In this document: positions 9,001-56,563 of the stretch, one piece after another | Numbering within the stretch: the stretch's first letter is position 1 | Layout of the letters: every line of letters begins with the position of its first letter | Origin: Psammoneis japonica | Lineage: Eukaryota | Direction: 5' to 3' | Assembly (NCBI GenBank): GCA_008632985.1 | Contig: QPGO01000003.1 | Location: 434,001 to 498,000 of the forward strand | Length of the DNA: 64,000 nucleotides | Translations under genes and position numbers: made by a program | The notes under the pieces: generated by a model | What the model was told of the DNA's origin: nothing | Databases searched by the model: none | What the model saw: the letters and a program-made list of their open reading frames with translations, nothing else

Positions 9001-12000
9001 CGATATCAATGCAATCTGCAATCAGAAGTCGCAAATGCGGTGCATAATCCACAAGCACATGAATCGACAGGGGCGTGATGCTGATTTCTTCCCACTTCCT
9101 CTTCATTTTCTCAGCTGCAGCTCTCCTATTCATTCTTGCGTCGCTCAGGTCGAAGTGAATATCGTCCCGCACCTCGTACACGCATTCGTCCTTATCAACT
9201 CTATGTGCTATGCGGTGGAACCTATGGAACCGTACATTATCGAAATCTGCTTCGGCTAAACGGTTGGAAAGGGCCGAAAACATTCTCATCCCTTCGCATA
9301 GCACAGATATTCTGCTAATCCATTTTTTGTCAAAAGACGAACAAATATCCCCCCCCAGTAAACCTTTACTGATACCCCCTTTCGGTGCAGAGGAATCCCT
9401 GATCCGGTCGACACAATCAACACAATCCTGGAACTCCGTATCCAGCGGAATATCACTAACAGAGGAGTTGAAACTATCAGTCGCAACGTCCGGCACGTCG
9501 GTCGAGGTCTCAGCAGATGTAGGTGGGCCCAGTTGATCATTGGGCCACATTTGTTTCTCTCCTGAAAAAGGCGTTGTCTCTGTTGGGAGCGACCAAGTGC
9601 CCTCATGGTAGGTATTGAAAACAGTAATACCATCAACCTGAACGGCAAGAAGTTCACTCCCCATGCTTGACCGAGGTATGACCAACGACGAATCCTCTAC
9701 AACAACCCGGTAGAGAAGCGGTGGAGGCGGATTTCCGTTGTCGTCTACGAGCGGATTTCCCTTTCTCAGCTTGCTCAACAAGAGCCCCAGCCCAAACTCA
9801 GCAGAGAAGAACTGGATCAACTCGTTGATATGCTGACGCACGACAAGCACTCTGCAGCTCGAAAGCGTTAAATCCAGCACAGTAGATTGCGTCCACGTAT
9901 TGCTTCGTTGTTTAATCTCCAACAAAAGGCTAACACCTTTGTGATCTGCAAGAGGTGTAATGATACTGGGGTATGTTTGACCCTCGGGGGTCAAATTTAG
10001 CATTGAAAAAGACCGCGCTGAAAGACTAACGTCGATCTGTGAGTGGTCGTTTCGAATAGAAACATCCTCCAGTATGAAGGTGGTGAATGGAACAAGCTCG
10101 TCGGATGCCATCAACAAGGTAAATGATGTAGATTTGCACACAACTGACGGCGCAATTTGAGGGCCGTCATAGTGCGGATCAGTCGTCGAGTCTGTAGTAG
10201 ATGCCTTTTCCGTCTGTCGAGATAATGCTTGCGCTATGTTGCGCATTGACTCGAGCACGCCACTGGTTACAGACTGGGAGAAAAACACCTCGCAGTCACC
10301 AATGATGATGTCATCAAGTAGCTCCTGAGATCTTTCAGTGTCATTCGCATTCTCCTCATGTGCTAGAGCTCGTATTGACATTCCACCGCATCCAAATTCC
10401 TGTCCTTTATCGATTTGGAACCTGCTGAAAATCATGCCACTGTTTTCAGACAAGAAAGTTTCTACGTCAGAGAGTTTTTCTGTCGCGGAAACGGCCTCCT
10501 CTCGAGAAACGTCGTCAGCCCCTGGCTGCGACTGTTTGAGCGTAAGAGGTTTTCGTTTCCCTATAGTCACAACATGAATCCCCGCTCCGTCACGCACGGC
10601 GAGAACGGAAACGTTGCAAGCTACATGAAAGTCGTAAAATAGATTCACCATCGAAATGGTGCCCCCCTGTTCTAGATCAACAACAAAGATCTCTCTGTAC
10701 TGCTGACCGTTCACGTGTCTTTCTTCTATCAATGACAGAAAATATTGCACTGTCTTTTCAACAGCGTTACTAATGGTGGTCTCGACAATATCAAGGGTCT
10801 CCTCCGAGTCGTCGTCGAAAACCTCGTCGTCTTCATAACCTGCGGAAGCAGGTAGATGCTCCATTTTTGATGCATTCGTGTGGGAACCCATGGCTTCTTC
10901 GCTGGATGAAAGCTCCATCAAAACTTGTGCATGGGATCTTTTCATGATTTCTATATCCGCGAGAAAGTTTGCGACGGCTCTTGCAGCACACTGCTCAGCT
11001 TCGTCCGTTGTCAATCCGAGCACTGAAAGACGATCCGTACAAATATTCGTTGCAAACTCCAACGGCTCTTCTGCTGGATATTCAAGGTCAAAACAAGAAA
11101 GGAAAGACAGATAGTCCGAGATGGCCTCTTCCAAGATTATTTCCTTCTTTTTCAACGACAAGGAGACGAAGTCAGTGTCCCACTTGTCCGTAACCAAAGA
11201 CACTCGTATTCTCCCGAATCTTGCATCCACAGACTGCAAAACGTGACCAGATAAAACTGCTACTCTAGGCGTCAACTGCACTGGGCGTTTCGCTGACGCA
11301 CCACCAGAAACTCCTACAAGAGCCTGTACGCATGCGGAGATCACTTCGAGCCTAGCCTTTGATATGAGGCAGAGAAGCGGTGATACGTGCACAACAACTT
11401 GGTGATCTGGAGAGTTACCGTCAATCTCAAAATTGGACGCTCGCGAGAACAGCAACTCTGCGTCCAACGGCATCTCTAGAAGGCTAGAAGTACCAACCAA
11501 GGACATCTGAGCTTCTGGTTTGGATGCTACGGTACAGTCGATTCCACTAAAAGCTATTACCTGTTGTGATGGAGAACGTGTGAAAAATAGTTATGTGTGA
11601 GCGACTTCATAACAACGCAAGAGTTTCAAAATAAGACACATTACCCACAGCGTGCTGTTGAGCGAAGGGACGCCGGCTCTCGAGATTTTTTTCAACATCA
11701 AGCATTCCTAGCTTTCGGCGCGCGCCGTCATCCTCATTACCGTGCGAAGCTGGCGTTGAATAAGACCGTGTCTCTCCCCCCTGTAGTTTGGTCAAATCAT
11801 CGACATAATCACCAAAATATAATTCAAAAAGGCCCACGGATAGTGACACACTGGCCGCGTGAACAGGAGTTGCAGCTGCAGAACCAAACGCATTTTCAGT
11901 CCCCGAATCAAGCGATTCCTTGTCTTCTGCAAGTGCGTCACGAACGAGCGGTATAATAAGCTCGAAACCGTGAATTCGCAATGCAGCATTTGCGCTGACT

Positions 12001-15000
12001 CGCGCCGACGGTCGCCGAACCTGTTTTTCGATATGTTTTGCAAGATAAGATCTTGCAGTCTCGTATGCCGACATTGGAATCACACTGCCAGGATATCTTA
12101 CGTCCGTCGCAAAGAAATCGCCGAGCTTGCTCAACGATGTTCTTTCCAAGGTAGCTGTGATTTTAGAAAGATCGCATTGAATATGCTTGTCTTTTTCGTC
12201 CACATCAAGCAAGTAAGCTACCAAGGCCTTCTCCTGGCGAACGACTGCGCTTTCTGAGTTTGCGCCCTGTCCATCAGAAACTGCTTCCACTGAACGGTTC
12301 TGCTCTACATCATCTGTCTGCAACGATTCTGATCGAACTAGAGTCAGAGACTCAGATCCCAGAATTTCTAATTGAGACACAGACAAAGACGCATTGTGTG
12401 ATCCCACGCTACTGCCATTCAGTAGGAAAATAACGTCTGTCACAACGACATGCAAAATGCTGTTTGGCGCGCCAAAGAGAAGAAAGTCGTTGGAAGACAT
12501 GATGTTTATGTCCAGTGAAAGATCTTCGCTGTTCAACTCTCCCAACCCTTCCGGATCCGTGAAGTCAGACGAGCCCACAGACAACTCTGAAACATCATCG
12601 CTCTGATCTTCCCCGTCGAAAAAGCCAATGGAGCCGTACCGTTTCGACGCTTGCGAAGGTTCAGGAGACGCTCGCAAATCGTGATTGCTATCACATAGCA
12701 TTAGTTCAACACTCTGAAACTTGAGTGAAAAGGAAAACCGAATGATTCGCTTGCTCTCGGCGGTCGATCCCGTCTCAGAACCTCGTGTAACTTTCGAATG
12801 GGCCGACTTAGCTGTCTTAAATGTTTTGACAGTCTTCGCGTCATGATCTCCACGGTGATCTTTCGAGAACGAAACAGCTCGTATTCCTTTCTTGGATATC
12901 GGAATAGGCCTCTCCATTGGCTCCAACGACGGGACATCAGCAGCCGCGTTTCTTTGGCTGCTGCCAAGAGACATAGCATTGCTGTCCATGTCAGGAAAAA
13001 ATCTGTCGTTCGTAGCAAGTGGGAGAAAGTCATGATTATGCGGTTCTGCTTCTTCGTCCTCCACTGCTGATTCTGCGGTTGAGTCTTTGTCGTTGTCCTC
13101 TGCCAACAGTCGACGACTTCGGGCATTCTTTGCTTTCAGGCGAAGTGGTGACAAAAATTCGCCGTTCTGGATTTCATTCTCTTGGTCCAAATCAGCCTCA
13201 TGAGTTGAAGAATATCGAGGTGCATGACCCCCTTCTTCTGAATTAGAATCACTAGAAGCGTCTCGTAAGAAGTCGCCAAGGTTGCCACCGCCATGCATTT
13301 CTAGAATAGAGTCTGGCATGGAATCAAGTCCGCGAACACCCAGAGCTCGAGCAATGGATCGGTACAACAAAATCTGTTCAACTTGTAACTCGTCTTCCAT
13401 TTCTGATAGCTGCTCCTCGCCAGCTTGTATTTCTGACAAGTGTGCCAATCTTGCATGAAAGGCGCGACGCTCCAATCTAATCATTATGTACAAATCCACG
13501 TATTCCTTCCGAAGATAGCGCTGCTTCTTCCAGTCAAAGGCCGTTAGGGATGGCTTAAAGACTGCTCGTAAATGCCTTCGTCGCCGAAGCTGCCATAAAA
13601 CACAGGAAAAGGCGTACTTCCACCATTCTTTTACAACCGCGGATCGTTCCGAATGAGTCTCAGGTTGTAAAAGATGTAGCCGAACTAACTTGTTGCTCGC
13701 GGGAGTTTGCAGAGTGTACGAATCTGTCTTGCTACGTTGAAGTGCTGGAGGCTGCACAGCAGAGGATGGCGTGGTTTGCCCGTCATTGATAGACGGAGGT
13801 GCCAGAGGAGTCTCCACCATTACAGACCGTTTCACTTGAGCTCCACCAGGAACAAGTTCCGAGAGAATAGAGCGGGCCGGTCTACCGTTTCTCATTTTGG
13901 CCTGTGCAGAAGAGAACACGTGGACTAAGCCGTGGTGCCGCTTTGTACAAAGAGTCCGAATATCGCCAAAGAAAATATTGACATCGAAGTGAGGCGTGGC
14001 AATCATAGCATCGTTGGAGTTTGATACAATGGAGGATCTGTGAGTCGATGACCGGGTATCAGCATGAGATACGGCGTCCGCCCAAAGGTTGGACTTCAAA
14101 TCAATTGCGGAGTCGGTCCCTGTGCTAATGAGCGTGGCGCGCCTCGTCGGTCTACCGACTCCCTTGGTGGTTGGCAAAGGAGCAACTTCTGCCTTCGAGT
14201 CAGACGTATCCGATTCTTTCGCCGTCCCAGAGTCCTGAACACTAGCCACCGACGCACTTCCTCGATCTCGCTTCCCTCTGCGAGCTTTGCTCGATGCCGT
14301 TGTTTCCTCCGTTTCGACAGTGTGATGGTCTTCCACCGATAACGACGTCTTTCGTATCAGTTTTGAATTAGAAGACGGGTAGAAAATGGATACAAAAATG
14401 TCAACTTCTGATGGTCGCAGCAGGTAGTCGTCAGCTGTGACAGACGTTGAGAATTTGAATTCCCGTGGCACACGCCTTAGCTTGTTGGTTTCCTCTCGTA
14501 CAAACAACCCCAGACCACGAATCTTGAGTTGCTTGTCCACTTGACGATCACCTGCATCCAATTCAGTCTCATTTTCGACCTTACTCTCTTGGGCGTCTGA
14601 AGAAGAACTCGCATTGGATGCTACCCCAAGCAAGCTGGCCCTCCTCTCTGTCATGTCCTCTACATGAGTTCCAGCCTCCATTGAATGACAAATAACCCCG
14701 ATCTCAACTCCATCCTGCATCATGACAATTCTAACATTGCGTATCGAAGCCTGGAGACCAGCAAAGAATCGCCAGAGAAAGGAGGAGGTAATCGATTTCA
14801 ACCATTTATCCAGTCGCCCAGCCACTGCTTCCTCCGCTGCTTCTTGCAGATCCAAAGCCTCCTCTTGTACATGGCTCGGTTTTTGCTTCATGGCGGGCGA
14901 TACTGGAAGTCCCTGCAGCATAAGTCGTTCCGCTTCTCGCAACTGTTCTTGTTTCACTTCTCTAGCTTCTTCCCCATCCTCTTCCACGCCGTTACCGGTT

Positions 15001-15389
15001 CCTTGCTTATTATTATTGGGCCGCGCAGCAGAGTCGATGATATCATTACAATTTGTTTGCGATTCAAATCCAACCACAAGCACCACATCCGACAATGTGA
15101 CGCGCACATCTCCGGCACCCCATACAAGTCGTTTCCAGGGGATTTGAACTCGAAAATGGCCAATTTCAGATTTCAACAGAGTCAGCAAAAGCGGGGGTCG
15201 CTCATCTACTTTGGTGGGTGTGCTTGTTAAGTCGCGTAGAATCGGATTAATGGACTCGCGCTTCAGACAGACTTCCTTCAGGGACAAATCACCAGACCAT
15301 ATTCCTAGCTGCAACTGCTCTGGATCGAACTCGAGATATTTAGATAAAAGATCCGTAAGCCCCTTGGAGGGGTTCATAAACGAAGACAT
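1..15389 (-). CDS. VPS13: VPS13 family bridge-like lipid transfer protein (chorein-N, VAB/SHR-BD repeats, PDZ-like and two C2 domains); multi-exon, 3' end runs off the left edge
   Basis: N-terminal chorein motif LLSKYLEFDPEQLQLGIWSGDLSLKEV; later WEPLLEP, PLVIENLLP, PFWIVNTT, PPFRIENR and VDTDGATRVLVISD motifs. ORFs 11607-15422, 5558-11506, 5223-5462 and 4534-5073 are joined by GT-AG introns at about 11561-11644, 5497-5577, 5193-5260 and 4458-4537. First in-frame ATG at 15389. Confidence 0.92.
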
Positions 15390-15789
15390 GATGAAGAAGT
15401 CGGTGCCGGAACGGGGATTCACTGATATTTCTTATGAATTGAATGACGGAGTAGTGATCAGCTTTTATCGTTGGAAATGATGCATTCTGTCTCTAGTGTC
15501 TTTGTCACAGACTCTTGGTGCTTAATGATGCACGACAAGTTGGGCTTTGAGGGGGTGGATAAGCCTGAATGAGCCTCGCTGCTGTCACCGCTCCGCTTGT
15601 TTGATCGTAATCGATGTGGATGATCGATGTAGGCCCTAGGCCCTAGAGCTTCCAGCCTCCCGCCTTTTTCTGTTCTGCGCTGGCGATGGATGGAAGCGCA
15701 TGCCAGACGAGAACCCCAAAAATTGGATCATTCAAAACCCTTGTACATGAGTATCTCATTAGGAATAAAAACACTTATTCAGATACGGT

Positions 15790-17640
15790 GCTTGAACGGA
15801 CAAAAGGGATCAAAGGATCGCGATTCGTTCGACGCGAAAGTTGGTCATCCCAAAGCCCGCTCTTGCGTCTCAAGGCGAAATGTGGCAGCACTTGCAAAGC
15901 TGTCATTCTTGCGCAGTCACCACTTGACTTGTTGACAAATGACACTTCTGGCCTTTGCTGCATGTTCATCATTGCTGGATTTTGCAGAGCAAGTCCAAAG
16001 AGGAGGCTCTGCACTGACTCTTTCAGCCCAGCAGGTTGGCAACAGCACTTGACTGGGAGAATCTGCAAAAGGGCCGACAAAGCCCATGGATCAATGGCCC
16101 CATTGACAGATGAATTTCTTGTCTCATTTTTTCTTGCAAGTTCCCACCATTGAAGAAATCCAGTGTTTTGTTGATGACATTTTTTGGTGTGTGTCTCTCA
16201 CATGTTTCGATGTCCACGTCTGCAGTGTGCTGGCCTCACCCACCCAAAACTTTCATGTCTTTGCAAGTTTGGTGAGCCCCAAATTCTGTGCAAGTCTGAA
16301 AGAGTCATGAGGAGATTGCTTTTGCATGGCAATGGTGAGAACACTTGGCATGCCCCCCTTCTTCCAGCTCAACTCTGTGCATGCATGAAAAAAGAATCTT
16401 GTTCTCTCTCTGCATTTGACCTGCTTTCAAACTTTTTGAACACACAAGCCACTGTTGCAAGAGTGTCAATTGCATTGGAGGACCTGCATTTGTCCAACAA
16501 TGGCACACAATGACCCCAAATTGTGGGCATTTGATGTGGGTGGTGTTCTCTTGAGTGAGTGTCTCAGCCACATCATTGCATGGAAACATGTCTGCCACCA
16601 CAAGTTCATGTTGCTCAAAGTCCAGAGCTTTTGCAATGTCTTTTGGTGTCCCCAACAATGGACTCCAGGGACTTGTTGCTGCTGCCAACTTTCTGATGCT
16701 GCAGGTCCAAATTCAATGCTGCTTGGGATTCAGGATGAGAGCCGAGTTGCTCACAGCAGCACAAACCAAGTCTGGGTGCAAGAGGCATGCCCAGCATGCA
16801 TCCAACATGCTTGGGTGGCTCCCCCCAAAAGTTGCCCACTTTGGCTGGTCCAGGAGGATGTCTTGCTTTCTTGTCCAAATTGGTGACATCTGTGAGATGC
16901 CAACAAAATGAAAGAGAAACCAACCAAGCACAGATTGGATGATGGCAAAACCTTGTCATTGTTGGAGCCTCAACCCCTGCTGTGAAATGTTGGAAGAAAG
17001 GGCAACTCTCCTGGGTGGTGGTGTTCCAGCACACATGCCCAAACAGGTGCGGCATTGGATCCTGTCAATTGTGACAAAAAATGCAGCATTCTGTTGCAGT
17101 TGCCAGTTGATTGCTCTTTTTTGTTGTCTGACTCTTCCTTCCTTTCATGGCTGAGCTGATGCTCTTGACCGAGCACCCTGGTTGGTTCTGTTGTGCGAAA
17201 AGACATTTTGTTGATTGCAAAAACACACAACAACATCTCAACCAACCTCACACTTCATTGACAACAAAACCACACTTTGTTGCCACTCATCTTGCACAGA
17301 ACCACCACTGAAAAAACTGATGCCATTGAGTTTGTCTCTGTGACTGGCTGTCAACTTGCCACACCTTGGGCGTTGGTTGTACGTTCATTTTTGTGCGTGA
17401 TCAACTCATTCAATGGTTGACCCCATCTGTCAGGATTGCGCAAACTGTTTTTGAGTTTTTTCACACATGCAATCATTTGCCAACTTTTTAAAATTGACAT
17501 TCGTGCATTGGTGTTGGCACATGCCTCAGGGATCTGATCCCTGTCACCACAGTCGCAATGCGCCAACATGAGACATGGACTTTGGTCGAAAGCAACCCAG
17601 TGCTCAAGTTTGTTAAAAGCTGCGTGTTAGAGTTGCGCTC
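15790..17640. mobile_element. Degenerate, unclassified transposon remnant; TpA- and CpG-depleted
   Basis: No TpA seen between 15786 and 17379; strong TG/CA excess; many short Cys/His-rich, Tyr-free ORFs in all frames; same composition as the recognisable copia elements. Family not identifiable. Confidence 0.6.
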
Positions 17641-18043
17641 TTGTGGACATTGCTGCGCCACCGATTTAATTTCACTTGTGCTTCCCAGCAGGGATCATTC
17701 ACTTCAGGTGCCAGAGTGAAAAAAAAACAGACGCCAGGACAAAGAGTTGGCACAGACGTCATCAAAAACTCGTGAGCAACACTGCTTTTATCACGTGTTT
17801 TAATTTTACTGCTAACTGGATTATGCTAATAGAAGGGCTGGCCGCTGGACCTCTTGAGATAGTTTGAATACCTTGTGTGGCATTCGGAGGAATCCCACCA
17901 ATCGATGATAGCAAGAACCGTGTTGGACATGCCAGCCATGCCGATCCACCGCGGCCATTCAAATTACGATGCGCCCCACCGCAAACCGCATCTCCGCCCA
18001 AACAATGCACTGTTTGAATGGACATTCAATCACAAGTGGCTCT

Positions 18044-19981
18044 TCAATGAAAGCGTTTCCGCTTTTTCTTCTTGTGATGCTTCTTATGTTTCTTGTCTTT
18101 GGACTTCCGTTTCTTTGGTGGAGCGGTTGGAATGACGGAGAGCGTTTCTTGTAGCCAAGGGAAAAACCGGTGCTGGTAGATGAAATGCTGTAGCATTGTA
18201 ATGGTAGACGCCTCTCTATCCTGACACGCATCTCGTACAATTGAGCCATGCAGCAAGGGTATATTGTACTTTTTACATGCAGTGTCAATCGCGGCATGGC
18301 CTTGGGACTCTCTCGACGGTGCAGCGTCCCTTGTTTCTCTGGCATCAATGTCAATAAATACAAGCAGTAAGCCCTCGTCTCGACAAGACACGTTGGAAAG
18401 ATCGAGGTTGTACAAAGTGTCAATCATATCTTGTCTTTCTTCGCATATGACATTCAGAGCAAATATGCTGGAAGCTGCGAATCCTTCTTTCGAACCCTGT
18501 AAAGTTTCATCAATGGCTTGAAACCGGACACTACAAGACTTGATCCTGTCAGATGCAAGTAGCTGGTCTCGCTTTCGACAAAGAGCTGCCAATATTTGAT
18601 GCTCACAAGGTGCCGCCTGGTGGTCTTGCGCCAAAGAGTTGACGAGCTCGTCTTGGCGAAATGTTAGCGATACGCCGTCTGTAAAAATGAAAGACAGGCG
18701 GTTCTCCAGCAGCTGTTGTTGTTTCCCGCTATTCGAAGCCAGTCGGGATCGCCAAAGAGTACATACAGTTATTCGGACCATGCACCACATAGAGCGATTT
18801 CGTTTCGCCAAATCAGCAGATAGCTCAGTGGATGGGAAATGGACTGTGCCAATCACATGCATGCACTGCGGGCCTGTGGCGGTATCGATTTGGCTGCTCT
18901 TTGAGTCATCTAACGAATCACGTTGGTTATACACTAATCCGGTCTTTTCCTCCGAGACAAGATGAAGCATGGGTGACCCTAGTACGCCATTGGCGTGATG
19001 ATATGCCACCACTGTTAGAATCTTGCTGGTAAACTCTGGTATCGGACCCAGTCGGACTCCCACGAGCGGAATCTTGCCTTGAGAACAAACAGTGTTCAGC
19101 GCCTTATATTCGCGCGGGACCATGTCTCTGACAGCTCCAAGAAAGAAACAGAGTTGGACATTGCTGCAATCAGGAGAAGCTCCTTGTTGAAGGTTGAAAC
19201 ATGGCAGTTCTGCGTCACAAGATTCATGAAGATTGACGGCAATCACCTTTTGAACTTGACTTGATAGCGGCTTCAACAATTCGGTGAAGATTGACACTAG
19301 AACGGCTTGATCATTTCCTTCATCGCTACGGGCACCCTTTCGATTACCCGTCTGTGTCTTTGTCCATTCATTCCATACATTCAAAAGCTTCGCCTTGTTG
19401 GTTTTCCTCAACACTACATCTGCGTTGCTGTTCAGTCGGTGCTTTCGCAAGAAATCCACGTTGCACTGCTTATGCATGTGGTCTAAGATATCCCGCTTTC
19501 CTGTGTCCATGTTGATTTTTGAGCTGTTCTTAGTAAGCATTCGTCCAATAGCATTTCGTTGTACTGGCCATCGAGACATTTGACATGACAACCCGAGAGC
19601 AGTAGTCGATTCAGTTGCCTTGATTGATGCCTTTCCAAGCAAAGATCCCATGCCGCTGTTTTCTCGCTTCTTATTTGCATCGGATGCAACTGATTTCCAT
19701 ACGTCCAACACTCGATGTTCCATAGGGCAAAGCATTAAGGAGTCGTTCCCAAGAGACAAACTCATTCGTGTCACAGACCAATCCTCGTCATGGATCAAAA
19801 CCAACTCTTTCGTTTGGAAGGAAGTACTGTCTGGAGCTTGCGGGCCATACAGAAAAGCTGCGACACACCGACACAAAGCATCATTCCTGTTCCACCACTG
19901 ACTCTCATCGCGATTTGGACGATAACACGAGGGGTCACCACCGCGACCCTTGCATAACAAAACAACTCTTACGTAGCACAT
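18044..19981 (-). CDS. SPOUT-fold, TrmY-like (pseudouridine-N1 methyltransferase-like) protein with an apparent second degenerate unit and a Lys-rich C-terminal tail
   Basis: Single long ORF, ATG at 19981. RNDALCRCVAAFLY resembles TrmY GRxDxLCRC; FFLGAVRDM...VRLGPIPEFTSKILTVV resembles the SPOUT knot; KKRKSKDKKHKKHHKKKKRK looks like a nuclear/nucleolar signal. Confidence 0.55.
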   Translation of the reverse strand: MCYVRVVLLCKGRGGDPSCYRPNRDESQWWNRNDALCRCVAAFLYGPQAPDSTSFQTKELVLIHDEDWSVTRMSLSLGNDSLMLCPMEHRVLDVWKSVASDANKKRENSGMGSLLGKASIKATESTTALGLSCQMSRWPVQRNAIGRMLTKNSSKINMDTGKRDILDHMHKQCNVDFLRKHRLNSNADVVLRKTNKAKLLNVWNEWTKTQTGNRKGARSDEGNDQAVLVSIFTELLKPLSSQVQKVIAVNLHESCDAELPCFNLQQGASPDCSNVQLCFFLGAVRDMVPREYKALNTVCSQGKIPLVGVRLGPIPEFTSKILTVVAYHHANGVLGSPMLHLVSEEKTGLVYNQRDSLDDSKSSQIDTATGPQCMHVIGTVHFPSTELSADLAKRNRSMWCMVRITVCTLWRSRLASNSGKQQQLLENRLSFIFTDGVSLTFRQDELVNSLAQDHQAAPCEHQILAALCRKRDQLLASDRIKSCSVRFQAIDETLQGSKEGFAASSIFALNVICEERQDMIDTLYNLDLSNVSCRDEGLLLVFIDIDARETRDAAPSRESQGHAAIDTACKKYNIPLLHGSIVRDACQDREASTITMLQHFIYQHRFFPWLQETLSVIPTAPPKKRKSKDKKHKKHHKKKKRKRFH

Positions 19982-20550
19982 CTTCGCACAAAACAACAGT
20001 ATGCGAGATGATTCAAGATGTTACTGTGTAGAGTTTATGTAGTCGAGAGGCTTGACTACTGACTGGCGGACAGACACAGACACTGTCCTCAATTTATTTA
20101 CATACAGGTATGTCTATGATGTATGTTCAATGTATGTATGGAAAAAAGAGATGCTACGAAAGGTCATTCAAAACCACGGCATAAATCTCTGGATAATAAT
20201 GATCTTGACAATGACTATTTTTACTTAACAAACAAGACTATGCGTATTATGTAAATAAGTGTTTTAGTGTCCATTATAACCGGACAAAGATGGTGCGTCA
20301 CACGCATTGGGTCAGATCTTTAACGGAATGGCGTTCAACAAGAATCATCGAAACGAGTTGACAAAATCATCAGTCATTGTGAAATCTCCCTCTGCTTCTC
20401 ACAAATCTCACGGTAGCACTGGCTGTTTCTCTTCGACGGGTGTTGTAAGTTGTTATTTATCGTTGCTAGTAGCTGTGGGTGTCGTTTATTGCTCATCATC
20501 AGCGCTGGGGTTGTGTTTAGTTTCAGGTTCGAACGGAACAGTCGCTCATC

Positions 20551-23500
20551 ATGAAGGTTTCGTTCGACCTCTCGGTCATTCTGTTGCTTCTCCCCGGCGC
20601 GGTGGCGCAAGACCCCATCGATTTGTTTCCCGTCCAAGATACCTATGTTAGAGGAGGTATATACGCGGATACAAACTTTGGGACGGTCACCAGGAGTTCC
20701 GGAGCCGTAGTCGGTAATCCCGACATGCCCACCAAGGAATCTTCGAATGCAGACCTCATTCGTCGCGGTTACACGCAGTTTAATTTGACATCGCTTCCTT
20801 CTAATATCGCCAGTGCTACGCTGCGGCTCCATGTGAGAGGCAACAATCGCGTGAACCCGCTCCTGAACGTCAGTACAGTCTCTGACAACTCGTGGGACGA
20901 ATTGACCATGACGTACGATACGAGCCCTACCATTGGCCAGCTCATTGCTTCGGTACCGTGCCCACCCAAGGGAGAATGGATGTCTGTAGACTTGACGTCT
21001 GATGTTCAATCCGCTGTCGGTTCTTTGTGGTCACTTGCCTTGACAGGAGGAACCTATGGTGCCTCCGTCGGATTTGCCACCAGAGACGATACCCACGGTC
21101 GCTCCACTTTCTTGGAAGTCACCACTGGCACTGGGCCCGCGATTTCTGCTGCACCGTCGTCCATGCCCTCGAGCGTCCCGTCATCTGTGCCCTCGTCCAT
21201 GCCATCAAGTGTCCCGTCGTTCGTGCCCTCGAGTAAACCATCGTTTTCGTCCGTGACTCTTGTCTCGCTGCCCCTCGATGACACGTTTGTGCGTGATTCC
21301 AGCCCGGACAAAACCGGCTACGGCACGTACTCCAGCCTTACCGTATCTTACGGCACTTCGCATGATAAGCGATACACCTATGTGAAACTGGATATTGATC
21401 TCGCTCAAGGCTCCTCCTTTATTAGCGAAGCCAAGCTGGATTTGTATGTCAAGGATTTGGATTCATCGGGAAGTATGGCTATCAATGTCTACCCATTACT
21501 TACTGAAGCATGGAACGAAGCATCAACCTCCTGGAACACACAACCGGGATACGATGTATCCAATCCTATTCACGAGAATCTTCCCATTGCTGCGGAATCG
21601 TCATGGATGTCAATTAATTTGACCGATTTCGTCAGTACCGCTGCAGCAGCGTTCCAGCCTACGGTCTCCATTGCCATTTTGCCAGTCGAAAATGGCGGAC
21701 CTGCGGGTCTCAAGACCAAATTTTCATCCAAAGAGTCTGGAAGCCAGCCCCAGTTTACGCTCGCCTTTATCCCTTATGAAGGCTCTCTCCCGCCGACGTC
21801 AGCACCGACGACCACTCCTTCGGGAAGCCCGACGAACCCTCCCTCTTCCATGCCATCGAGTGTACCGTCATCCATGCCATCGAGTGTACCGTCCTTCATT
21901 CCCTCGAATAAACCATCGTTTTCGCCTGTGACTCTTGTCTCGCTGCCCCTCGATGACACGTTTGTGCGTGATTCCAGCCCAACCAACACCGGCTACGGCA
22001 CGTACTCCAGCCTTACCGTGTCGTACGGCACTTCGCACGACAAGCGATACACCTACGTGAAACTCGATATTGATCTCGCTCAAGGCTCCTCCTTCGTTAG
22101 CGAAGCCAAGCTGGATTTATATGTCAAGGATTTGGATTCATCGGGAAGTATGAATGTCAATGTTTACCCAGTACTTTCTGAAGCATGGAACGAAGCATCC
22201 ATCTCCTGGAACTCACAGCCGGGGGCTACTCAACAAGGTGGCCCAGGATACGATATATTCAATCCTATTCACGAGAACCTTCCCATTGCTGCAGAATCAT
22301 CATGGATGTCAATTGATTTAACCGATTACGTCAGTACCGCCGCCGCAGCGTTCCAGCCTACGGTCTCCATTGCCATTTTGCCAGTCGAAAATGGCGGAAC
22401 TGCGGGTCTCAAGACCAAGTTTTCTTCCAAAGAGTCTGCAAGCCAGCCCCAGTTTACACTCACCTTTATCCCCTATGGAGGCTCTCTCCCGCCGACGGCA
22501 GCACCGACGACCACTCCTACGAGAAGCCCGACGAACCCTCCACTTTCCTACCCGCAACTTGTGTCGCTCGACGCAAATGATCAGCTGGTGTACGAACCCT
22601 ACGCCAACGAAATCAACGAGCTTCTAGGAAGTGTGGCTAATCCAGCTGTTGTTAACACTGTGCCTGATTTTTCCAACGCTGGATACAAGGGTAGGTTGAT
22701 CTTCTTGATCTTCTGAATCTCGAATTCTCTGTGCATCATACGCCACGGCTCAACTCAGAGACTTTTTTCTTCTCTTTTCACAGGTGGAGGTATGCGGCAC
22801 CGGATACTCAGAATCTGAAGGCTCAGCTTATTAGAACGTATCTAACTGTCTTTGTCTATTTTCTTCACTTTTCAGGGGTTCCGATTCCGTTTGTTGCGGC
22901 TGCTGAGACGGTGAGTGAAGGCTGTTCTTGTACTAATGATTTTAGTGGTAGGCTTGAATTGACAATGGCTCACTCACGTCGATTTTTCTATGTTTATAGG
23001 TGTCCCCTATGTCCGGGGACGCTCGATGGACTATTCAAGCAGCTATCGATGCGGTCTCTAACCTGACGCCAGATGCGAATGGTTTTCGTGGTGCTGTGTT
23101 GATCGAGGCTGGAGATTATGACATCTCCGAGCCAGGTCTTTCAGTTGTCACGAGTGGAGTTGTGATTCGTGGCGAAGGATCGGGAGCAGGAGGAACGAAG
23201 CTGCACTTTACGAGCACCAACAGAGACTCTTTCCTTGTCAACTTCGGCAAGGTTTCTGGTGGGATTACGCCGTCAGGTGCAGCGTACAGCATCACTGATA
23301 CTTTTGTGCCCGTGGGAGCCAAAACCTTCACGGTTTCTGATGCGTCCAGCTTTTCGGTGGGCGACAGCATCGTCATTGAGTTCCAGCCTAATCAGTTGTG
23401 GATTGACCACCTTTCTAACATGGGGCAACATGGCTGGACGCCTGGTGGCTATGACGTAATCTGGCGGCGCAAGATTGACGACAAGGTTGGCAACCAAATC

Positions 23501-24679: not shown

Positions 24680-26850
24680 GTAAGAAAGAATTTTCTCTCA
24701 ACGCGTGTCCAGCAGAAAACACCAGCAGCAGGCAAGTTCTAGAGAAGCTGACATGCCGAGTTGGCCACGTGGCAAGCGTCGAATGAGGTCTTCCATCGCA
24801 CTGGCGGATGATGACCTCCGTGCTTTCAATTTGTTTGTGGCAACTCCCTGTTGATGCATTGATGCCAGCTGCTATGCTGTTGAGGTTGTTCAAGCACACA
24901 CGTTGCCGCAAATTGCAAGACAATCGTGTGATTCATATGTCTGAAGGGCGGCTGTTGCTTCGGGCATGAATTTCGAGCTTCTTTGCACATGCAGAGCCCG
25001 CAGAAAAAAATGTGCCAGCTGCCAGCCATCAAGAATGTCTGGTTTACACAGACAGTGCAGCAGCACAGCACCACAGGGGGCATTTGATGAACCGCTGGGA
25101 GGACTCAGACAATCAAAATGAGACATTTAATGCCACAGCATGCTGTGGTTCTGGGTGGGTGCTTGATGCAGACAACTGATGTTCTCAAGAGGGGCAAGAG
25201 TGCTGCTTTTCAAGAGACACTCACGTGAAAGACAACAGCGGTGGATGCAGCTGTTGCAATTTCATGGCTTGCCAACTGATCTGTGCCAGTCTCACCACCA
25301 ATTCCCAAACTCACTGCATGGATTGCAAATGCTGCTCCAGTGCCATTGCTCTGACTGATGTCCTGGTGCAGAAGCTAAAAAGTGAGCATGAGACCCATCT
25401 TCATGGTGAATTTACAATGCAAATTCATGACGTCACCAACAGACATTGGTTGTGTCCTTTTTGCTGTGACATTGTCTGTCTGTTCTCCAAAAACTGCATC
25501 GCACCCTGATGTTCCAACACACCCCATTGCATGAGCCGTCAATTGGCTGGCCTTGTGTGCACTCACAAAAAGAGGATGACAGTTGGAGACCATGCCATTT
25601 GTCGTCATTGCCATTGAGCGAAGGATGATCTGCTTTTTCTCATGTTGTGCAAAGCTTGCTCCCTCATGTTTCTTGTTGGCCTTGCATGCACCCAATGCCT
25701 GCAGCACCTCTTTGGCTGAATTGGGACAATGGTCACCTCCCAATGCAAACTGCTGGCGCAGGTCCTTTAAGATGCATCAACGCTCCTTTTGGGGTGCACC
25801 TTCCATGAGGAGCAGCACTTTGGCAACTTGCTCCTCTCTTTCTTCTGGGTGTCCTCAGCATCCGTGCTTGCCCATCTTCTTTTTTGGGGCAGACGACTCT
25901 GCCGCAGGACCCTCCCACCATCTCAACAACACTTGTGAGCTGACTGCAACAAAATCTTGATCTGTCTCTTCTTTGTCCTGATGAATGAGCACCACTGCTT
26001 CCAAGCCTTGACAGCCTGAACATGCAAGCAGATTCTCAACTTCAGAACTCCCAAAAAACAGCACCCTCACACCCCACTCCTTTGTGACCCTCACAAACTC
26101 CATCACTCCCTCTCAACCACATGTGACAGACAGCCTTGATTGACACTGCCCCTTCAAGTGGCACGCCTTTCCTCTCTTGTCCTCTTGATCCTTCAAACAG
26201 AGCAATGAACTCTTTTCCAGTCTGCGGTGACTCCTCTTGTCAGTTCAGCAAGCTCAAAAAGTGCCGCGATCACTCACACCAACCAAGTCTTGAGCTCCTC
26301 TTGACTTTCCAGCCAATCCCTTTTTGAATTCTGAGTTGGAATTTCATGGCTTGCTGGCCAATCTGTGCCAGTCTCACTGATCCAAGAGAACTCATTGCAT
26401 GGACTGCAAACACTGCTCTCTGAGACAGCGCCATTGGCTGCCCAGTGTGTTGTCATTCGGGCGCAAAATCCAAAAAGTGAGCACGCACATGAGACCCATC
26501 TTCATGGTTGATTTGTGAACCTTAATTCATGATGTCACCAACAGTTGTCAGCGTCCTTTTCCTGTGACATTTTTGTCTGTTGTCTGTCCTCTGAAAACCA
26601 CATTGCACCCCCACCATGTCCCAACACACAGCCAGCACCTCTCTTGAGAGAAGCTGTGAGGCAACACGACAGTGCTGCACAGAGGTAAAAACAGAAGATG
26701 CAACAGGTGACAGTGAGACACTCCTCTCCAGAGATCAAGTTGTGAGGAGATTCCTCTTTTTCAACAAATGTGACAATCACTCGGATTGCCATCGCCACGA
26801 GAGAACCAAACGGAATGTTGTGACACTCCCCAAGACGGTTGGGGGACATC
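24680..26850. mobile_element. Degenerate, unclassified transposon remnant; TpA/CpG-depleted, with an internal diverged repeat
   Basis: Composition switches abruptly after the stop codon at 24640; few TpA; 25261-25520 and 26343-26630 are diverged copies of each other. Confidence 0.6.
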
Positions 26851-27144
26851 CGTGAATCAGACTCGTGACTGATGATCGATGATTCGATTTATTTATTCGT
26901 CATTCACAAGGTCGTCTGTCATCCATCCGGCTCTCATGTTCTCGAGAAATATAAAACGACTTGGCAATGGACACGAAAACCTGAGACGGTGCGGCTGCCG
27001 AGAGTGCAACGCAAACAAGCTCTGCGAGTAGACTATATAACCTCTTCAGTGAGCCACAGCATTGGCCATAACGACGGATCTGCGATACACAACACAAAAC
27101 TTGGCAAGCAACTGCGGTGTGTGTGCGGCTAAAAAGATACACCC

Positions 27145-30100
27145 ATGGACGAAGCGCAGCAACGGACCATATTGAGGAGTATTGCCGTATCCTCTGGTAG
27201 GATCGGCGGCTTTGTATCTCAACAAGACCGACAAGAGGCGTTTCGTATTTTAGAAGAGTTCAAGAAGTATGATGGAAGAATTCCGATTTGTATATCATGG
27301 CTCCATCAAGACCAACATGTTGTCGTTGTTGGCAACGACGGTGTGCGGGTTGATGTCACGGTTTCTACCAAGCTTTTTGTGTTGAGTGTGTTGCAGTCGT
27401 TTTGCTTGTCTGGGTATGCCAAATTGAATCCTCAAGATCGATTGTCGTTTCGGAATGCAGTTGTCACGTCAGCGAGACAATTGGCACCTTTTTCTTTGAC
27501 GGATGAGACACGGATTCTCGGCAACAAAATCGCATCTCTGTTGGCGGATCTTATGGTGAGAGATTTTCCTCAAAGATGGACGACCTTTTTCCAGGATCTT
27601 TATGTTCCCATCAATCCTAATGATAGCAACAGTGGTGGACTGTGGTGTGGGGATATCTCCACGGCGGCGGCAGTCATGGGTGTCAAGATGGGATTAGAAT
27701 GCATGAGACTTGTCACGGAGGACTGTACGGATAGCGATTTCAACTCGAAGATATCGACATCGAGACGAAACGATGTCTTGATTGGCTTAAATGAAGTATC
27801 TTCTCTTTTCCTTCCTCTCCTGTACTCACTCTTGGAGCAATACCCGACCTTGGTGAATTCAAAAGCTACGCTACACAACATGAGGGCGTTTCTAGCCAGC
27901 AACGGACGATCTTTATCACAGATGACAACGGAAGAGGCATCATCCTATCAAGCTGAACTGACAAAGTTTACTCAGACTGGGCGTCTTATTGCCGATTGCC
28001 TTGTTACATTGGAACGATTCTGTCGCTCGATGCCCATAGAGTGGATGTTGGGGAAAAACGGTGTTGATGGGACAGAGAATGATTTTGTGGCTGCCTTCTT
28101 ACATTTATTGCGAGAATCGTCGTCGTCTATTCAGATCCATGCAGTTGCCTGTTTGGAACAGCTTGCAACACGTAAATTGGATGCTCATGTATGGTGGTTT
28201 CGATTCGTTGCTACTTTGCCACAAGCTGTTGGTGAAGCGAATCAAGCAGCACAAATCGAACAAGAGTGGCTTCAAACAGAAAATGCGGTCAACGGGGCTC
28301 CCGCTACAAACCAAGCGGATCCTTTAACAGGTCAACTGGAATTCCATCGTGCATTGTCGAGAATGTTGGCTCTAATGATCTCGGCACACGTCGCGCATAT
28401 TACAATCGACAAACAAAGTATGAGTGGTCGCGGCGCTAAATTCCAAGCACTCTCTACCTTCATTCGACTCTTGGTAGATATGCTTCACCACCCCTCCGGA
28501 CGGATATGCAGTGAGCAAATCAACACATGGATTGCACTTTTACGTGATCCACAAATCGTCAAAACGAACATACTGACACCAGTCTTTCCAGAGATCCTTA
28601 CCTGTTACATGGACAAAGTGGTTCGATTTCGGTGGGAGAGTGTAGAGGAACAGACACATCCGCATGCCAGTTTGATGGAGGCCAGTTGGGATGACCAGGT
28701 ATGAATTTTGGGATTTTTGCATGATTCCACTCGCAAAATCGTAACCATTTCCCTACTTGTGTTTTGCAGGATGAATACGATGCTTGGTTGGGCGATCTAC
28801 GTTCCAAGAGCAGCCAGCTGTTCAAGTTTCTAAGCCACAGTGAACCAAAGATTGCAGCGTCTGTCCTTAATGATAGAGTACAGGCTCTATTCAATGCACA
28901 CGGCACGGGTGAGCCACTAAACTATCTTGATCCGAGCAACAACCAACTCACTCCAAAAAGTGAAGCTTGTCTTCAGTTTGAAGGAATATACCAACCTCTC
29001 GAAAATATACTGCACGGTATTCCTGAGTGGGCTTTACAACAAAATGGTGAAGCGGGGTCTGAGAGAGCAAGCGTAAGTCGAATCTGTCGTGAAGAATGTT
29101 TGAGAGTGTTGCGATCGCGTCTCATCGTTGAAGGCGCTCCAAAAACAATAGATCCAGGCTGCGGTACGGTCGTCCCTCTCTCAAATGGCAAACTGCATTG
29201 TAGCTTGGAACCCTGCTTATCTGTGGCTCAAATTTCGAAGAGCGAGTCTTTTAGAGGCCCTAAGGCATTACTGGAAACATGATCCTTCCACGCTCTTGTC
29301 AGGTGTGGATGCCTTGTTAGGTTACCTTAGCGCACCTGACGACTGGAAACAACCCGCGAGCAATAATCCAAATGATAGTAAGCAAATGAGTGGAGAAGTT
29401 ATTGGACTGAGAAAGAAAAGCGGAACTTCGTTGGTGGCGATCGCGAAGGTCGTCCCGCATCATCTTGTGCCTTGGTTATCACAACTTAGTGGAGCGACCA
29501 AGAATTTACTGTCATCACCAAACCTTCTCCAACCAAACCGCATGCACCTCTACGAGTTTCTGTCATGCGTTGCTACGGCCGTAACTGACCCGATTGCTCG
29601 CTCAAACTTCATCGCCGACGTCATGTCAGATGCATTGAACACCCTTGATTCCCCTGAAGTGGTTGACGGTATATCTTCCGTTGAACGCTTTTTGACAACA
29701 TTGGGGATTATGCAGGCTTCCAAATTTCCTTCAAGTGTCACTGACCCAGCCAATGTCAAGTCAGTCACAGCACAGTTTGTTCGATTGTTCTCGTCGATTA
29801 ACCAGTTGTTGTCCGTTGGAAAGCGCTGTCACGAGGCTTCACGGAAGGGGGGCAACGGCGGGATCCCACTTTTAGGATCGCCACTGGCTTTTGGAAGCTC
29901 GGTATCAGGCAAACAGAATTTCCCCGACGAAGGCCCTGTTAGCCTCAAAGACATCGCGGTAAACGACCCGTTTGTCCCACTGTGGCCCAGAATTCTTCCT
30001 AGGCTCCTGCAGGTTTTGGATGTGACGTTTAACGTGTGGCATCCAGAGGATCAAGCCGTCCTATTGTCTGATCCCATCCAACGCTACGCTTACGCGATTT

Positions 30101-42690: not shown

Positions 42691-43504
42691 CATCGTGTTT
42701 ATTCTTGAATGGGTTGCTCCATCCTTTTATATATGAAGCATAGGATTTCTTACTGTTTTGCATTCCTAATACAGTAGAGAGCGACGTCTCTTCGCTTCCA
42801 ATTCCTTTTCAATGACATCTCTGCCAATGTCTAATGTTGTACCGCACAACTGAAAGATCGTGAAGTAAGATCGCGAACATGATGAGTATGATGGCTGATA
42901 CTTGCAATGTCCCGCCGTCCATAATATGAGACATCGATAGTAGCGTCACAAATCAACTGACGGTACAACTGCTGAAGGCTACTAGTTTTCCTTGACGAAG
43001 TTATGCATGGTAGAGTAAGAACTGACATATCCAAAGAGCATTACAAAGAATAAGGAATGCTATAAAAATAAAAATGTGCATCGGGGTCTTCAACAACAAG
43101 ACGACCACCCGCCGACCATGAAAGACCCCCCATGAGTTCGTATTGTACATGAGCTTCTGCCGCACTTCATTGTGTACTAGAAGTGTGGGTTAGCCGGGGG
43201 TGTTAGCACTTACAAATTAGGTTTGGTTTTCCTGTGTTGTACGCTGTCAATCGATGAGAGTATCAAAGCATGAAATATGAAGAATATGCGCATCATAACT
43301 CATTGTTTGAGGCTTGGTTGTTTGCTCTTACAGAAATTTCCTCAAATAATGTGCAAGCTTGAGAGTCAACCAAAAGTAGATAGAAGGATCCATACAGTGT
43401 CATGTATCATGGATGGTTGGAAACCGAATGTAGATATGGAAAGATGGATGTTTGGAGACCAAATGCAAATGTGCCAGGCATTTATGTTTCCTTCGCATCT
43501 CTGG

Positions 43505-45106
43505 CTATGGCTTTCCTCTCAAGAGATGGCGTCCCGTCCAGTCGTCGTCATCGTAGCCGCCTAGCCCATCGTCGTCGTAGCCATCGTCGTTGTATCTACT
43601 AACATCGTCATCGTAGCCGGTGGTGCCACACCAGTCATCATGGCAGTCGTCATCGTCGTCATAGTGATCGTCATCGGTGGTGCCACACCAATCATCATGG
43701 CAGTCGTCATCGTCGTCATAGTGATCGTCATCGGTGGTGCCACACCAATCATCATGGCAGTCGTCATCGTCGTCATAGTAATCGTCATCAGTGGTGCCAC
43801 ACCAATCACCATGGCAGTCGTCATCGTCGTCATAGTAATCGTCATCAGTGGTGCCACACCAATCACCATGGCAATCGTCGTCGTCGTCGTCGTCGGTGTA
43901 ATCATCGTCGTCTCTTCCATAGATGCAGAGCAATTTTGTACACTTTCCACCATAGAAATGGCCGCTGTCAAGAGCATTGCACTCAACTTCTGTGACATCA
44001 TCGCGACAAGCATCGAAATTTCCATTATCAACGTGGCAACAGGCTCCTGTGACTGGTGAGGGCTCGCAAGGGTGAGACAGACACGTCGTGAGGTGACCTT
44101 GATAGGTACCTCTGTTTTGATATTCGCATTCGTAGTAGGAAAGACGATCAAGACATCCTCTACCAGAAATGCAACACGCGCCCGTTACATCACCGGTGCA
44201 GGTAGAAAAAGTGCACTCTCCGCCGACGAAATTCCCGAAATTGAAAACCACTTCGCACTCCTCTCGGGTTACATCATCGCGACAAGAAAAACCCTCAATG
44301 CCATGGCAGCAGGCTCCCGTGGAAATGCACTGGTTAGGGTGGCATGGTACGTTATTGCCAAGGTATTCGCGATCTCCGTATTTGCGGTCTTTGCGGCTAC
44401 ACTGGGCTTTCGTGAGAACCTTGCAATTTCCACTGCGTTTATTGCAACATGCACCCTTTGGGCAAGTTCCCTGGGCGGTACAAGGCACCCTGAAACCCAA
44501 GAAATCTCCTTTGCACTCCCACCTTGGAGTCATTTGGCATTCATCTTTCTCTGCATCACAACATGCTCCAAAAACCTGCAATCATTTGAAGACACAGTTG
44601 TGTGAGTTGAATGGATGGGCATTTACTGGCTCTGGCGTCGTGTGTCATGCATGAGATGGTCCAGATTTCGCTTACCGGTGTCAGAAGCTTCCGAAAGAGT
44701 GACTCTGATTCAGCTTTGATGATGTCCTGCGGGAGCTCCGGCTTTTTTTGTGAGTAGTCGCAACAACGGAACGTCAAAGACAACAATATCAGAATGGCAA
44801 GTCGAGTGGGAGTGAAGTAAAGCATTTAAGCAGGCACCTACGACGAGTGCTTACTTTTGACAAGGCACCATTGGTTTCTTCCAACTCAGATCCTGGATCT
44901 GAGACATCGACGTGAGAAGTGACACCTAATTCGGCAAAAGTATAGTCAAGTGGGTGAGTTCGTGCTCAACGCAATGATTCACGTCTCTTTCCGCGCACGC
45001 CATCATCCCCGGATTCCATTGTCCATTGCTTCCATTACACACCTGTTGCCCTGCATGCGGTGAGCGTGAGAACGAGAATAGCTTCTTCTTTTAGTATGAT
45101 TTTCAT
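43505..45106 (-). CDS. Secreted Cys-rich GACC-repeat protein A with an Asp-rich C-terminal repeat
   Basis: Exons 45106-45043, 44925-44855, 44741-44676 and 44575-43505 splice in frame: signal peptide MKIILKEEAILVLTLTACRATG, RKL motif, five GACC modules, DDDDDCHDDWCGTT repeats, terminal RHL. Confidence 0.8.
43600..43900 (-). repeat. 57-bp coding tandem repeat (19 aa, TDDDYYDDDDDCHDDWCGT), about 5 copies
   Basis: tggtgccacacca recurs at 43621, 43678, 43735, 43792 and 43849. Confidence 0.93.
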
Positions 45107-45855
45107 CCTTTTCGTTCAGTGCCTTATTGTCAATTTTCGCTTCTCTGTGAACGTCGCATCCCAAATCGCTCGTTGACTTCTACTAGCTAGTAGGTAGAGC
45201 GAGACTGTGACTGTGGATTTTCGGTGTGTGATCTGAATCACGTCTCTGTTAAATGCAGGCACTATTCAAGTTGAGTTTTGTTTAACATTCAGAAGAATGC
45301 TCCTTATTAAGGATTTTTAGTATTGAGAATATGGAGAAAAAGTTTTTCCTATCAATGTCTTTAGGAAAATTCATTTCCAGTCCCAAACATCCAAATCTGT
45401 TAAATGGTCTGTTAAATGTTATAACCAGTTAAATAAAGTCGTCGAAGCAGTTGTCTTGACACGTCAACAGTGTCAGCAATCGTTCCAAACTGTTAAATAA
45501 AGTCGTCGAAGCAGTTGTCTTGAAGTGTCAGTAATCGCTTAAACGAGAGAAGAAAATCGTTAAATATAACTTATAAATGTTAGCATGAGATCAATCCGCG
45601 TTTTCTCGAGTCCCACATGGGCACTGTCCTCATCCCAACGCACCTCCCAAGCTGGGAGTGCTTCCAACGTGCCGGCACAGCACGGTAGACACAGGCGCAC
45701 TCTCTGCGGTGGAACCCCATGTGAAAACGTGGCACGCAAAATGGCTCTCTGCCCTTTGGCCAATGACTCATCCGTGACCTCCGACTGAAGAACCAACAGT
45801 GACCGTTGCTTGCAACAACATCATCATGTCAGCACTCTGCCTCACTTCTCGAAGC

Positions 45856-56532: not shown

Positions 56533-56563
<31 letters not shown>

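Follow-up and report, generated by a model that had tools for sequence, protein, structure and literature searches.

A tract of about 1.6 kb without a single TA dinucleotide (TpA) was found at positions 15786–17379 of a 64,000-nucleotide stretch of the genome of the diatom Psammoneis japonica (NCBI GenBank assembly GCA_008632985.1, contig QPGO01000003.1, positions 434,001 to 498,000, forward strand; hereafter the window, numbered from its first letter). This tract is very probably a dead native diatom gene of the Peptidase_S28 (S28) family of serine carboxypeptidases that was hit both by CpG decay and by a regional hypermutation of TpA to TpG or CpA. It adds a further lineage and a further kind of target to a hypermutation recently described in the chlorarachniophyte Bigelowiella natans (Mettrop et al., bioRxiv 10.64898/2026.01.13.699255). 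Five tracts in the window were TA-poor; the present one had been singled out in an earlier reading of the same DNA from its letters alone (the sequence-only reading), which regarded it as the saturated end state of a TpA-erasing process acting on an element.

No TA occurred from 15785 to 17380, and this gap of 1596 bases, bounded by TAs at 15784 and 17380, was the third longest in the window. Adenine and thymine were ample in the tract (A 391, C 392, G 367 and T 444 of 1594 bases), and base composition predicted 108.9 TAs; with the TA observed/expected ratio of normal host DNA (0.55; whole window: 1794 TAs, 0.43 of expectation), the prediction was 59.8. The Poisson probability of observing none was 5e-48 for the former and 1e-26 for the latter expectation. 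The minimum among 1000 mononucleotide shuffles of the tract was 82 TAs, and when 64 kb were simulated 300 times with a first-order Markov model trained on host DNA, the longest gap free of TA was 220 bases on average and 353 bases at most. The statement of the sequence-only reading that TA is missing from a tract rich in A and T was thus borne out by the count and by both of the null models it had proposed.

CpG was also scarce in the tract, with 20 remaining (observed/expected 0.22) against 93 (92.6) expected at the host frequency. Their placement was uneven: 12 of the 20 lay in the 127 bases of 15786–15912 and eight in the other 1467 bases. This distribution agreed with two further observations of the earlier reading, namely that CpG is depleted in the core and survives at the left edge, and that the loss of TpA reaches past the CpG-decayed core, TA being gone at the left edge among the 12 surviving CpGs. 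The dinucleotides TG (192, 1.88 times expectation) and CA (166, 1.73 times expectation) were in excess, with no significant difference between their counts (binomial p = 0.19). Measured against 37,856 bases of host DNA, from which 59.5 TA and 92.6 CG were expected in the tract, the combined deficit of TA and CG (132.1) nearly equalled the combined surplus of TG and CA (128.8). CpG decay and TpA loss both feed TG and CA, which accounts for the size of this surplus. Similar balances were obtained in three other CpG-decayed tracts of the window, where 109, 394 and 412 TA and CG were lost and 102, 407 and 445 TG and CA, respectively, were gained.

The left edge of the tract was abrupt, the 41 bases of 15744–15784 containing six TAs, whereas the right edge was not sharp and passed into a partly depleted shoulder (17380–17790). 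Therefore, of the sharp edges proposed earlier, only the left one was retained. The flanking genes are diatom-like, and the normal dinucleotide content of the flanking open reading frames (ORFs) was in line with the earlier remark that TA occurs regularly in them.

The identity of the tract emerged only when its stop codons were read through. Pfam searches with plain ORF translations gave nothing credible, and the longest stop-free stretch overlapping the tract was 168 codons. Because TGA is the sole stop codon possible in a TA-free sequence, the six frames were read through with X placed at TGA. One minus-strand frame then matched Pfam Peptidase_S28 (PF05577; E = 1e-9, 38.2 bits vs. a cut-off of 25). 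A phmmer search over 1.84 billion protein representatives gave 33 matches at E ≤ 1e-3 (best 2.1e-10), and 17 of the 18 matches tested for family were full-length S28 peptidases, the remaining one being a spurious low-complexity match. A local profile made from 32 of the phmmer matches (698 positions; the motif names GGSY and DPW used here are taken from it) reached 70 bits on the minus strand (E = 5e-23). Its alignment consisted of four colinear blocks in three reading frames, with two frameshifts, and the serine, QTCTE and DPW blocks of the family were in the right order. Using individual proteins, tblastn traced the homology from 16916 down to 15905. No match was obtained in a word-indexed protein search with the read-through frame (0 of 5526 candidates at E ≤ 0.001) or in a phmmer search of the three minus-strand frames against PDB sequences (E ≤ 1).

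Along the profile, in which frameshifts and in-frame TGA codons interrupted the alignment, GGSY was replaced by GGSH, kYP by LHP, GFYQT by GAHQT and LIyk by VICQ; in total, conserved tyrosines had become His three times and Cys once. The serine block, for example, read FGGSHPSML..ACLLHPDL in the tract against FGGSYpGmL..aRlkyPdL in the profile, with the serine kept and the tyrosines now His; a catalytic His could not be located. The N-terminal third of the gene, expected at 16917–17490, gave no signal in a profile search, and local alignment to the consensus gave scores of 28–36, within the range of shuffled sequences (maximum 41–44). In this region, tblastn produced one weak match (E = 0.21), and LEHHHPG near 17040 might be a remnant of EHRYYG, as judged by eye only.

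The tract thus carries the decayed C-terminal two thirds of an S28 gene of the “thymus-specific serine protease” type, and the combined length of the tract and its right shoulder is approximately that of one gene. The serine, QTCTE and DPW blocks are shared with the S28 family (lysosomal Pro-X carboxypeptidase, dipeptidyl peptidase 7 and thymus-specific serine protease). In contrast to working members, the tract is a pseudogene: no S28 ORF of family length was present, three frames were needed to follow the homology, in-frame TGAs occurred and the N-terminal third was unrecognisable. The sequence-only reading had stated that its interpretation would be overturned if the tract were a conserved, single-copy gene whose codon bias is unusual. 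The tract is derived from a gene and single-copy (see below), but with in-frame TGAs and two frameshifts it is not a working gene, and codon bias therefore offers no explanation for the absence of TA.

The loss of TA and that of CpG came apart in a copia element at 60158–64000 (minus strand), which has a GC content of 0.55–0.59 and whose open frame of 1280 codons contains an RVT_2 domain. Here, 17 TAs remained against 146 expected (ca. 88% lost), whereas CpG was intact (278 vs. 227 expected), indicating that TA loss does not require CpG decay. In a comparison with 120 homologues (51%–63% identity, 561 conserved columns), five of the 29 conserved Tyr columns were kept, 13 had become Cys (TGY) and eight His (CAY), so that 21 of the 29 now encoded Cys or His. 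Among the non-Tyr conserved columns, 478 of 532 (90%) were kept. The Tyr content of the ORF was 0.47%, whereas the homologues had a median of 3.9% and none was below 2.86%. As a change from TpA to TpG or CpA makes no stop codons, the copia frame has stayed open. Judged by these figures, the TA-erasing process is fast relative to other change. None of the 120 best public copia homologues, a set biased toward well-kept sequences, was depleted in Tyr (lowest 2.86%), and this set thus contained no trace of the process in other genomes. The presence of both Cys and His outcomes, together with the similar counts of TG and CA in the tract, showed that both strands were hit. Overall, the earlier view of the tract as the saturated end state of a TpA-erasing process was supported by the near-equality of TA and CG loss with TG and CA gain and by the replacement of Tyr with His or Cys in both the relic and the copia ORF. 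At the copia locus, a 148-base segment (60175–60322) also recurred at 63529–63676 with 92% identity, implying that two copies, or one rearranged copy, abut there.

The few TAs that survived in the five depleted tracts were not a random sample of host TAs. Of these 49 TAs, 15 were in the context TTAA, a context that accounted for 3.6% of the 1414 TAs in host DNA (p = 1e-10). When both strands were counted (98 counts), the T was preceded by T in 47, G in 24, C in 23 and A in four cases, whereas the distribution was nearly even in host DNA. ATA seems to be erased most readily and TTA least readily; TTAA would therefore survive because it is protected on both strands. These results suggest a mutator with a three-base preference. 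No third-base preference was noticed in the Results and Discussion of the B. natans preprint.

The other depleted tracts provided evidence on the timing of the changes. A pair of long terminal repeats (LTRs) or a copia ORF was present in three of the four. Two elements erased of both TA and CpG (54643–59522 and 25128–26629) were flanked by decayed direct repeats (54677–54972 with 59152–59466 at 75%, and 25253–25522 with 26335–26629 at 71%) and are probably old LTR elements. Among the double mismatches between the paired repeats, CA vs. TG was the commonest class (4 of 12 and 5 of 18). Because paired LTRs are expected to be identical at insertion, CA/TG differences between them imply that the changes occurred after integration. 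Pfam searches with 18 read-through frames covering 24900–26701, 45600–50701 and 54500–60201 identified no family at E ≤ 0.01.

We considered an assembly artefact as the source of the tract and rejected it, since contigs from public reads agreed with it. When the public reads of run X1, which may come from the window's own source sample, were independently re-assembled, a 2240-base contig covered 15807–18045 with no substitutions and a single 1-base indel. The 2.2 kb of the tract formed one variant-free contig, and the flanks contained several heterozygous sites. At the left edge, a heterozygous bubble (15712–15836) was resolved as two allelic contigs at about half depth (32.6 and 29.6) that differed by two substitutions and small indels. 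To the right of the shoulder, a short repeat (17831–18047) had a depth of two to three times that of its surroundings in the public contigs, and TAs were kept in the window copy. When this copy was compared with the others, 8 of 11 substitution rows were TA/TG (17870, 17910), CG/TG or CG/CA (17874, 17885, 17897, 17904) or CA/TG (17982–17983).

Whether the relic belongs to the host or arrived with a mobile element bears directly on the nature of the target. The tract might represent a degraded transposable element or another mobile or foreign insert, with a captured or virus-borne peptidase and with TpA erasure serving as a defence against foreign DNA, as in B. natans. LTR pairs or copia ORFs in three of the four other TA-poor tracts, a left edge as sharp as an insertion junction, the small repeat directly right of the shoulder at elevated depth, and the viral and transposon-like sequences targeted in B. 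natans would all be consistent with such an insert. Nevertheless, we regard this explanation as unlikely. No terminal repeats framed the tract; the best candidates were a direct pair of 27 bases (70%) and an inverted pair of 23 bases (74%). No second copy was found within the window, and none at ≥ 80% identity among the X1 contigs (141 Mb), a threshold below which copies or a paralogue would escape; the contig depth in X1 was 63.6 over the tract and 57–61 over the flanks. Remnants of a transposase, reverse transcriptase or integrase were absent from the six read-through frames, which gave only Peptidase_S28 against Pfam at E ≤ 5. Thus, neither the classification of the tract as an element nor the transposase for which the sequence-only reading had proposed profile searches was supported. 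Moreover, the best named relatives of the relic were the diatom Attheya and the bolidophyte Triparma, with other diatoms also among its relatives. The exportin-like ORF of the host (27133–28704) likewise had diatom best matches at 45%–54% identity (Attheya 54%, followed by Thalassiosira, Cylindrotheca, Amphora, Epithemia, Nitzschia and others), and its relatives also included one row labelled Alexandrium and one distant Triparma. Since the relatives of the relic belong to the same lineages as those of the host exportin, the relic looks like the host's own gene, i.e., a native-type gene that was single-copy in the one available sample.

The remaining alternatives concern the process rather than the target. 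TA loss might be a by-product of error-prone repair, such as polymerase-eta-like patch repair of T:G mismatches arising from methyl-cytosine deamination, and TA loss and CpG decay did share nearly one domain in four of the five tracts. Polymerase-eta errors give A to G changes at WA motifs (W, A or T). In the tract, however, AA was not depleted (134 observed vs. 114 expected), so the signature is confined to TA and does not extend to WA; in addition, the copia element lost its TA with CpG intact, and the left edge is TA-free where CpGs survive. We therefore consider this route very unlikely. Loss at the RNA level, through a retro-copied peptidase mRNA hyper-edited from A to I at UpA by an ADAR- or ADAT-like enzyme before reverse transcription, is more improbable again, although the tract is approximately the size of one transcript and RNA adenosine deaminases favour U before the edited A (10.64898/2026.01.13.699255). 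Editing of the sense RNA would convert TA only to TG (Tyr to Cys), whereas Tyr to His predominated among the clear cases in the tract, both outcomes were found in the copia ORF, and TG and CA did not differ significantly. The CA/TG differences within LTR pairs place the changes after integration, and in B. natans the mutations appeared during clonal growth, in integrated DNA that was single-copy. Finally, we give next to no credence to a live gene or regulatory region that selection or codon bias keeps free of TA. The sequence is gene-derived and single-copy, and the TA content of normal host DNA is itself low, but the broken frames, the replacement of catalytic-site Tyr and other conserved residues, the normal TA content of the adjoining intergenic DNA and the extension of the TA-free state over the non-homologous ends of the tract all argue against a functional sequence.

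Taken together, these results favour a dead native S28 gene altered by two processes. The relic lies between two working host genes and would have been silenced or disabled first, after which two context-specific transition processes acted on it. One would be the ordinary decay of CpG to TpG or CpA, as cytosine methylation would give. The other would be a regional hypermutation that changed the A of TpA to G on either strand until no TpA was left. By analogy with the proposal for B. natans, the most likely mechanism would be an enzymatic deamination of adenine in DNA within a silenced chromatin domain. The data demonstrate the composition, the identity of the gene and its broken state, the direction of change at conserved Tyr codons, the action on both strands and the single-copy status in the one sample; the enzyme, the chromatin targeting and the reason why this gene was hit are inferred. 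The left edge could be a chromatin boundary at the upstream region of the VPS13-like gene or a later sequence junction.

Several points weigh against this interpretation. The sharpness of the left edge is more readily accounted for by a sequence junction than by a chromatin mark that spreads. In the tract, GA/TC was below and AA/TT above the host reference, shifts that we tentatively ascribe to the composition of a reference consisting mostly of coding DNA, and the TG/CA surplus could not be divided between former TA and former CG. As the N-terminal third was unrecognisable, the match between the tract and the gene body is approximate. The direction of change in the tract itself is read from few conserved tyrosines. 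A stricter tblastn tally of 116 consensus columns contained five Tyr columns only, now His in two, Phe in two and Ile in one. All read evidence came from one DNA sample (X1), with X2 lacking cover over most of the tract and X3 providing none. Furthermore, a native-type single-copy target differs from the viral and foreign targets in B. natans, and the targeting rule may differ accordingly.

The closest known system is that of B. natans. Of the 231 mutations that mutation-accumulation lines of this alga gained in two integrated viral regions, 230 are reported to be changes of A to G or of T to C, all of which fell on TpA, at rates approximately 1000 times the background (Mettrop et al., bioRxiv 10.64898/2026.01.13.699255). 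The preprint further describes 124 TpA-poor, CpA- and TpG-rich clusters in the genome, whose depleted sequences contain transposon-type domains and also many host-like domains, and proposes an ADAT2-like deaminase acting on DNA, as yet untested (10.64898/2026.01.13.699255). The signature in the window matches that system in the change from TpA to TpG or CpA on both strands, in its confinement to regions, in the depletion of TpA with a gain of CpA and TpG and in the presence of transposon-type domains among the depleted sequences. It differs in lineage (a diatom, i.e., a stramenopile, rather than a chlorarachniophyte, a rhizarian) and in target (a native-type single-copy relic rather than an integrated virus). 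The tract is also saturated, with no TpA and with strong CpG decay on top, whereas the region derived from a nucleocytoplasmic large DNA virus in B. natans is reported to keep 3.3% TpA. The mutation rate in B. natans was measured directly; the tract is known from its sequence signature. The foreign (viral or transposon) origin of the targets was not a feature of the tract, but such an origin may not be defining, given the host-like domains reported among the depleted sequences of B. natans. Full-text literature searches for hypermutation of TpA to TpG or CpA returned the B. natans preprint only, and none for diatoms.

Other systems share only part of the signature. Fungal repeat-induced point mutation (RIP) changes C to T mainly at CpA, creates TpA and needs duplicated sequence. 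Ascomycete RIP is likewise regional and saturating and ruins the affected genes and elements through transitions in a dinucleotide context, but in the tract TpA was destroyed, GC content rises and the sequence was single-copy in the sample available. Fungal-type RIP was accordingly rejected as acting in the wrong direction, TpA being absent rather than in excess and CA enriched. CpG decay by deamination of 5-methylcytosine covers the CpG deficit (20 vs. 93) and part of the TG/CA surplus; however, it cannot remove TpA, and the two deficits had different edges and were uncoupled in the copia element. The editing of cDNA by APOBEC and of double-stranded RNA by ADAR is also a context-preferring hypermutation of selfish sequences, and ADAR-type enzymes are described as preferring U before the edited A. 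These enzymes act on replication intermediates or RNA and on one strand, whereas the changes observed here affected both strands of resident DNA after integration, including a non-mobile relic.

A genome defence or silencing-linked mutator that edits the adenine of TpA in DNA is so far documented, in the literature found here, by one preprint on one chlorarachniophyte. If our interpretation is correct, a saturated signature in a diatom would turn a curiosity of one alga into a candidate for a widespread eukaryotic system, whose signature affects both retrotransposons and a dead native gene, can be separated from CpG decay and carries a readable three-base preference. This preference could then serve as a biochemical fingerprint for finding the enzyme. 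Diatoms include genetically tractable species. More tentatively, and with somewhat less than even confidence, we propose that diatoms possess a fast, regional form of DNA editing by which, in silenced DNA, the A of TpA is changed to G on either strand. Being of the same kind as that in B. natans, it would probably be old in the lineages of stramenopiles, alveolates and rhizarians (SAR); it would not be limited to foreign or repeated DNA but would also consume single-copy native relics, act independently of cytosine methylation and read the third base. There is also a practical consequence for annotation. Erasure of TA masks genes and elements from similarity searches, because Tyr is replaced with His or Cys and the process eliminates stop codons instead of making them, and it yields long spurious open frames, for which the annotation of such genomes should allow. 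The features of the tract and its surroundings are listed in Table 1.

Table 1. Features of the TA-free tract, the peptidase relic and the flanking DNA (positions in the window).
Feature	Position	Strand	Remarks
TA-free tract	15786..17379		0 TA, 20 CG, 192 TG, 166 CA
Left edge of tract	15786..15912		TA absent, 12 CpGs survive; 3' of recognisable peptidase homology (ends near 15887–15905); ca. 350 bases upstream from where the VPS13-like ORF ends
Recognisable relic of Peptidase_S28 serine carboxypeptidase	15887..16916	-	Profile positions ca. 188–524 of 698; three frames, in-frame TGA codons
Catalytic-serine block	16740..16856	-	KWATFGGSHPSML..ACLLHPDLVCAAVSNSA vs. profile kwvtFGGSYpGmL..aRlkyPdLihaaVssSa; domain 1, 36.6 bits; Tyr to His twice, Arg to Cys once
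QTCTE block	16191..16325	-	LFQTCTEFGAHQTC vs. profile WlwqTCtEfGFYQTc (tract TCTEFGAHQTC); domain 2, 31.1 bits; also by tblastn; Tyr to His, two in-frame TGAs
DPW block	16063..16128	-	SVNGAIDPWA vs. profile svnGdvDPWs; other frame (frameshift between 16191 and 16128); 5.1 bits, weak alone but colinear; also by tblastn
C-terminal block	15887..16000	-	..ARSVICQQVK.. vs. profile aRelIykqvk; third frame (second frameshift); Tyr to Cys; 6.5 bits, colinear; also by tblastn
Expected N-terminal third of peptidase gene	16917..17490	-	Extent inferred from profile length; no longer recognisable
Right shoulder, partly erased	17380..17790		6 TAs vs. 15 expected; CpG recovering, 14 vs. 24 expected; 3 of 6 surviving TAs in TTAA
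Normal intergenic DNA upstream of VPS13-like gene	15432..15785		16 TAs vs. 13 expected; defines the abrupt boundary on the left
Host ORF, N-terminal part of VPS13-like protein	11607..15431	-	VPS13_N, E = 4e-12; dinucleotide content normal
Host ORF, 658 aa	18044..20020	-	Opposite side of tract from VPS13-like ORF; dinucleotide content normal

Elsewhere in the window, the tract at 45686–50504 contained 16 TAs in 4.8 kb and was the largest TA-poor tract after that at 54.6–59.5 kb. Its six read-through frames had no Pfam match, and no terminal repeats were found. A segmental duplication with normal TA content (43255–45614 and 50802–54515, ca. 2.3–3.7 kb, ca. 78% identity) was also present. As each copy lies directly left of a TA-erased tract, the duplication may have involved an entire unit comprising a host-like segment and an erased element. 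The ORF at 20521–22716, which encodes three CBM96 carbohydrate-binding modules, contained an internal tandem duplication (21154–22541) of ca. 700 bases at 87% identity.

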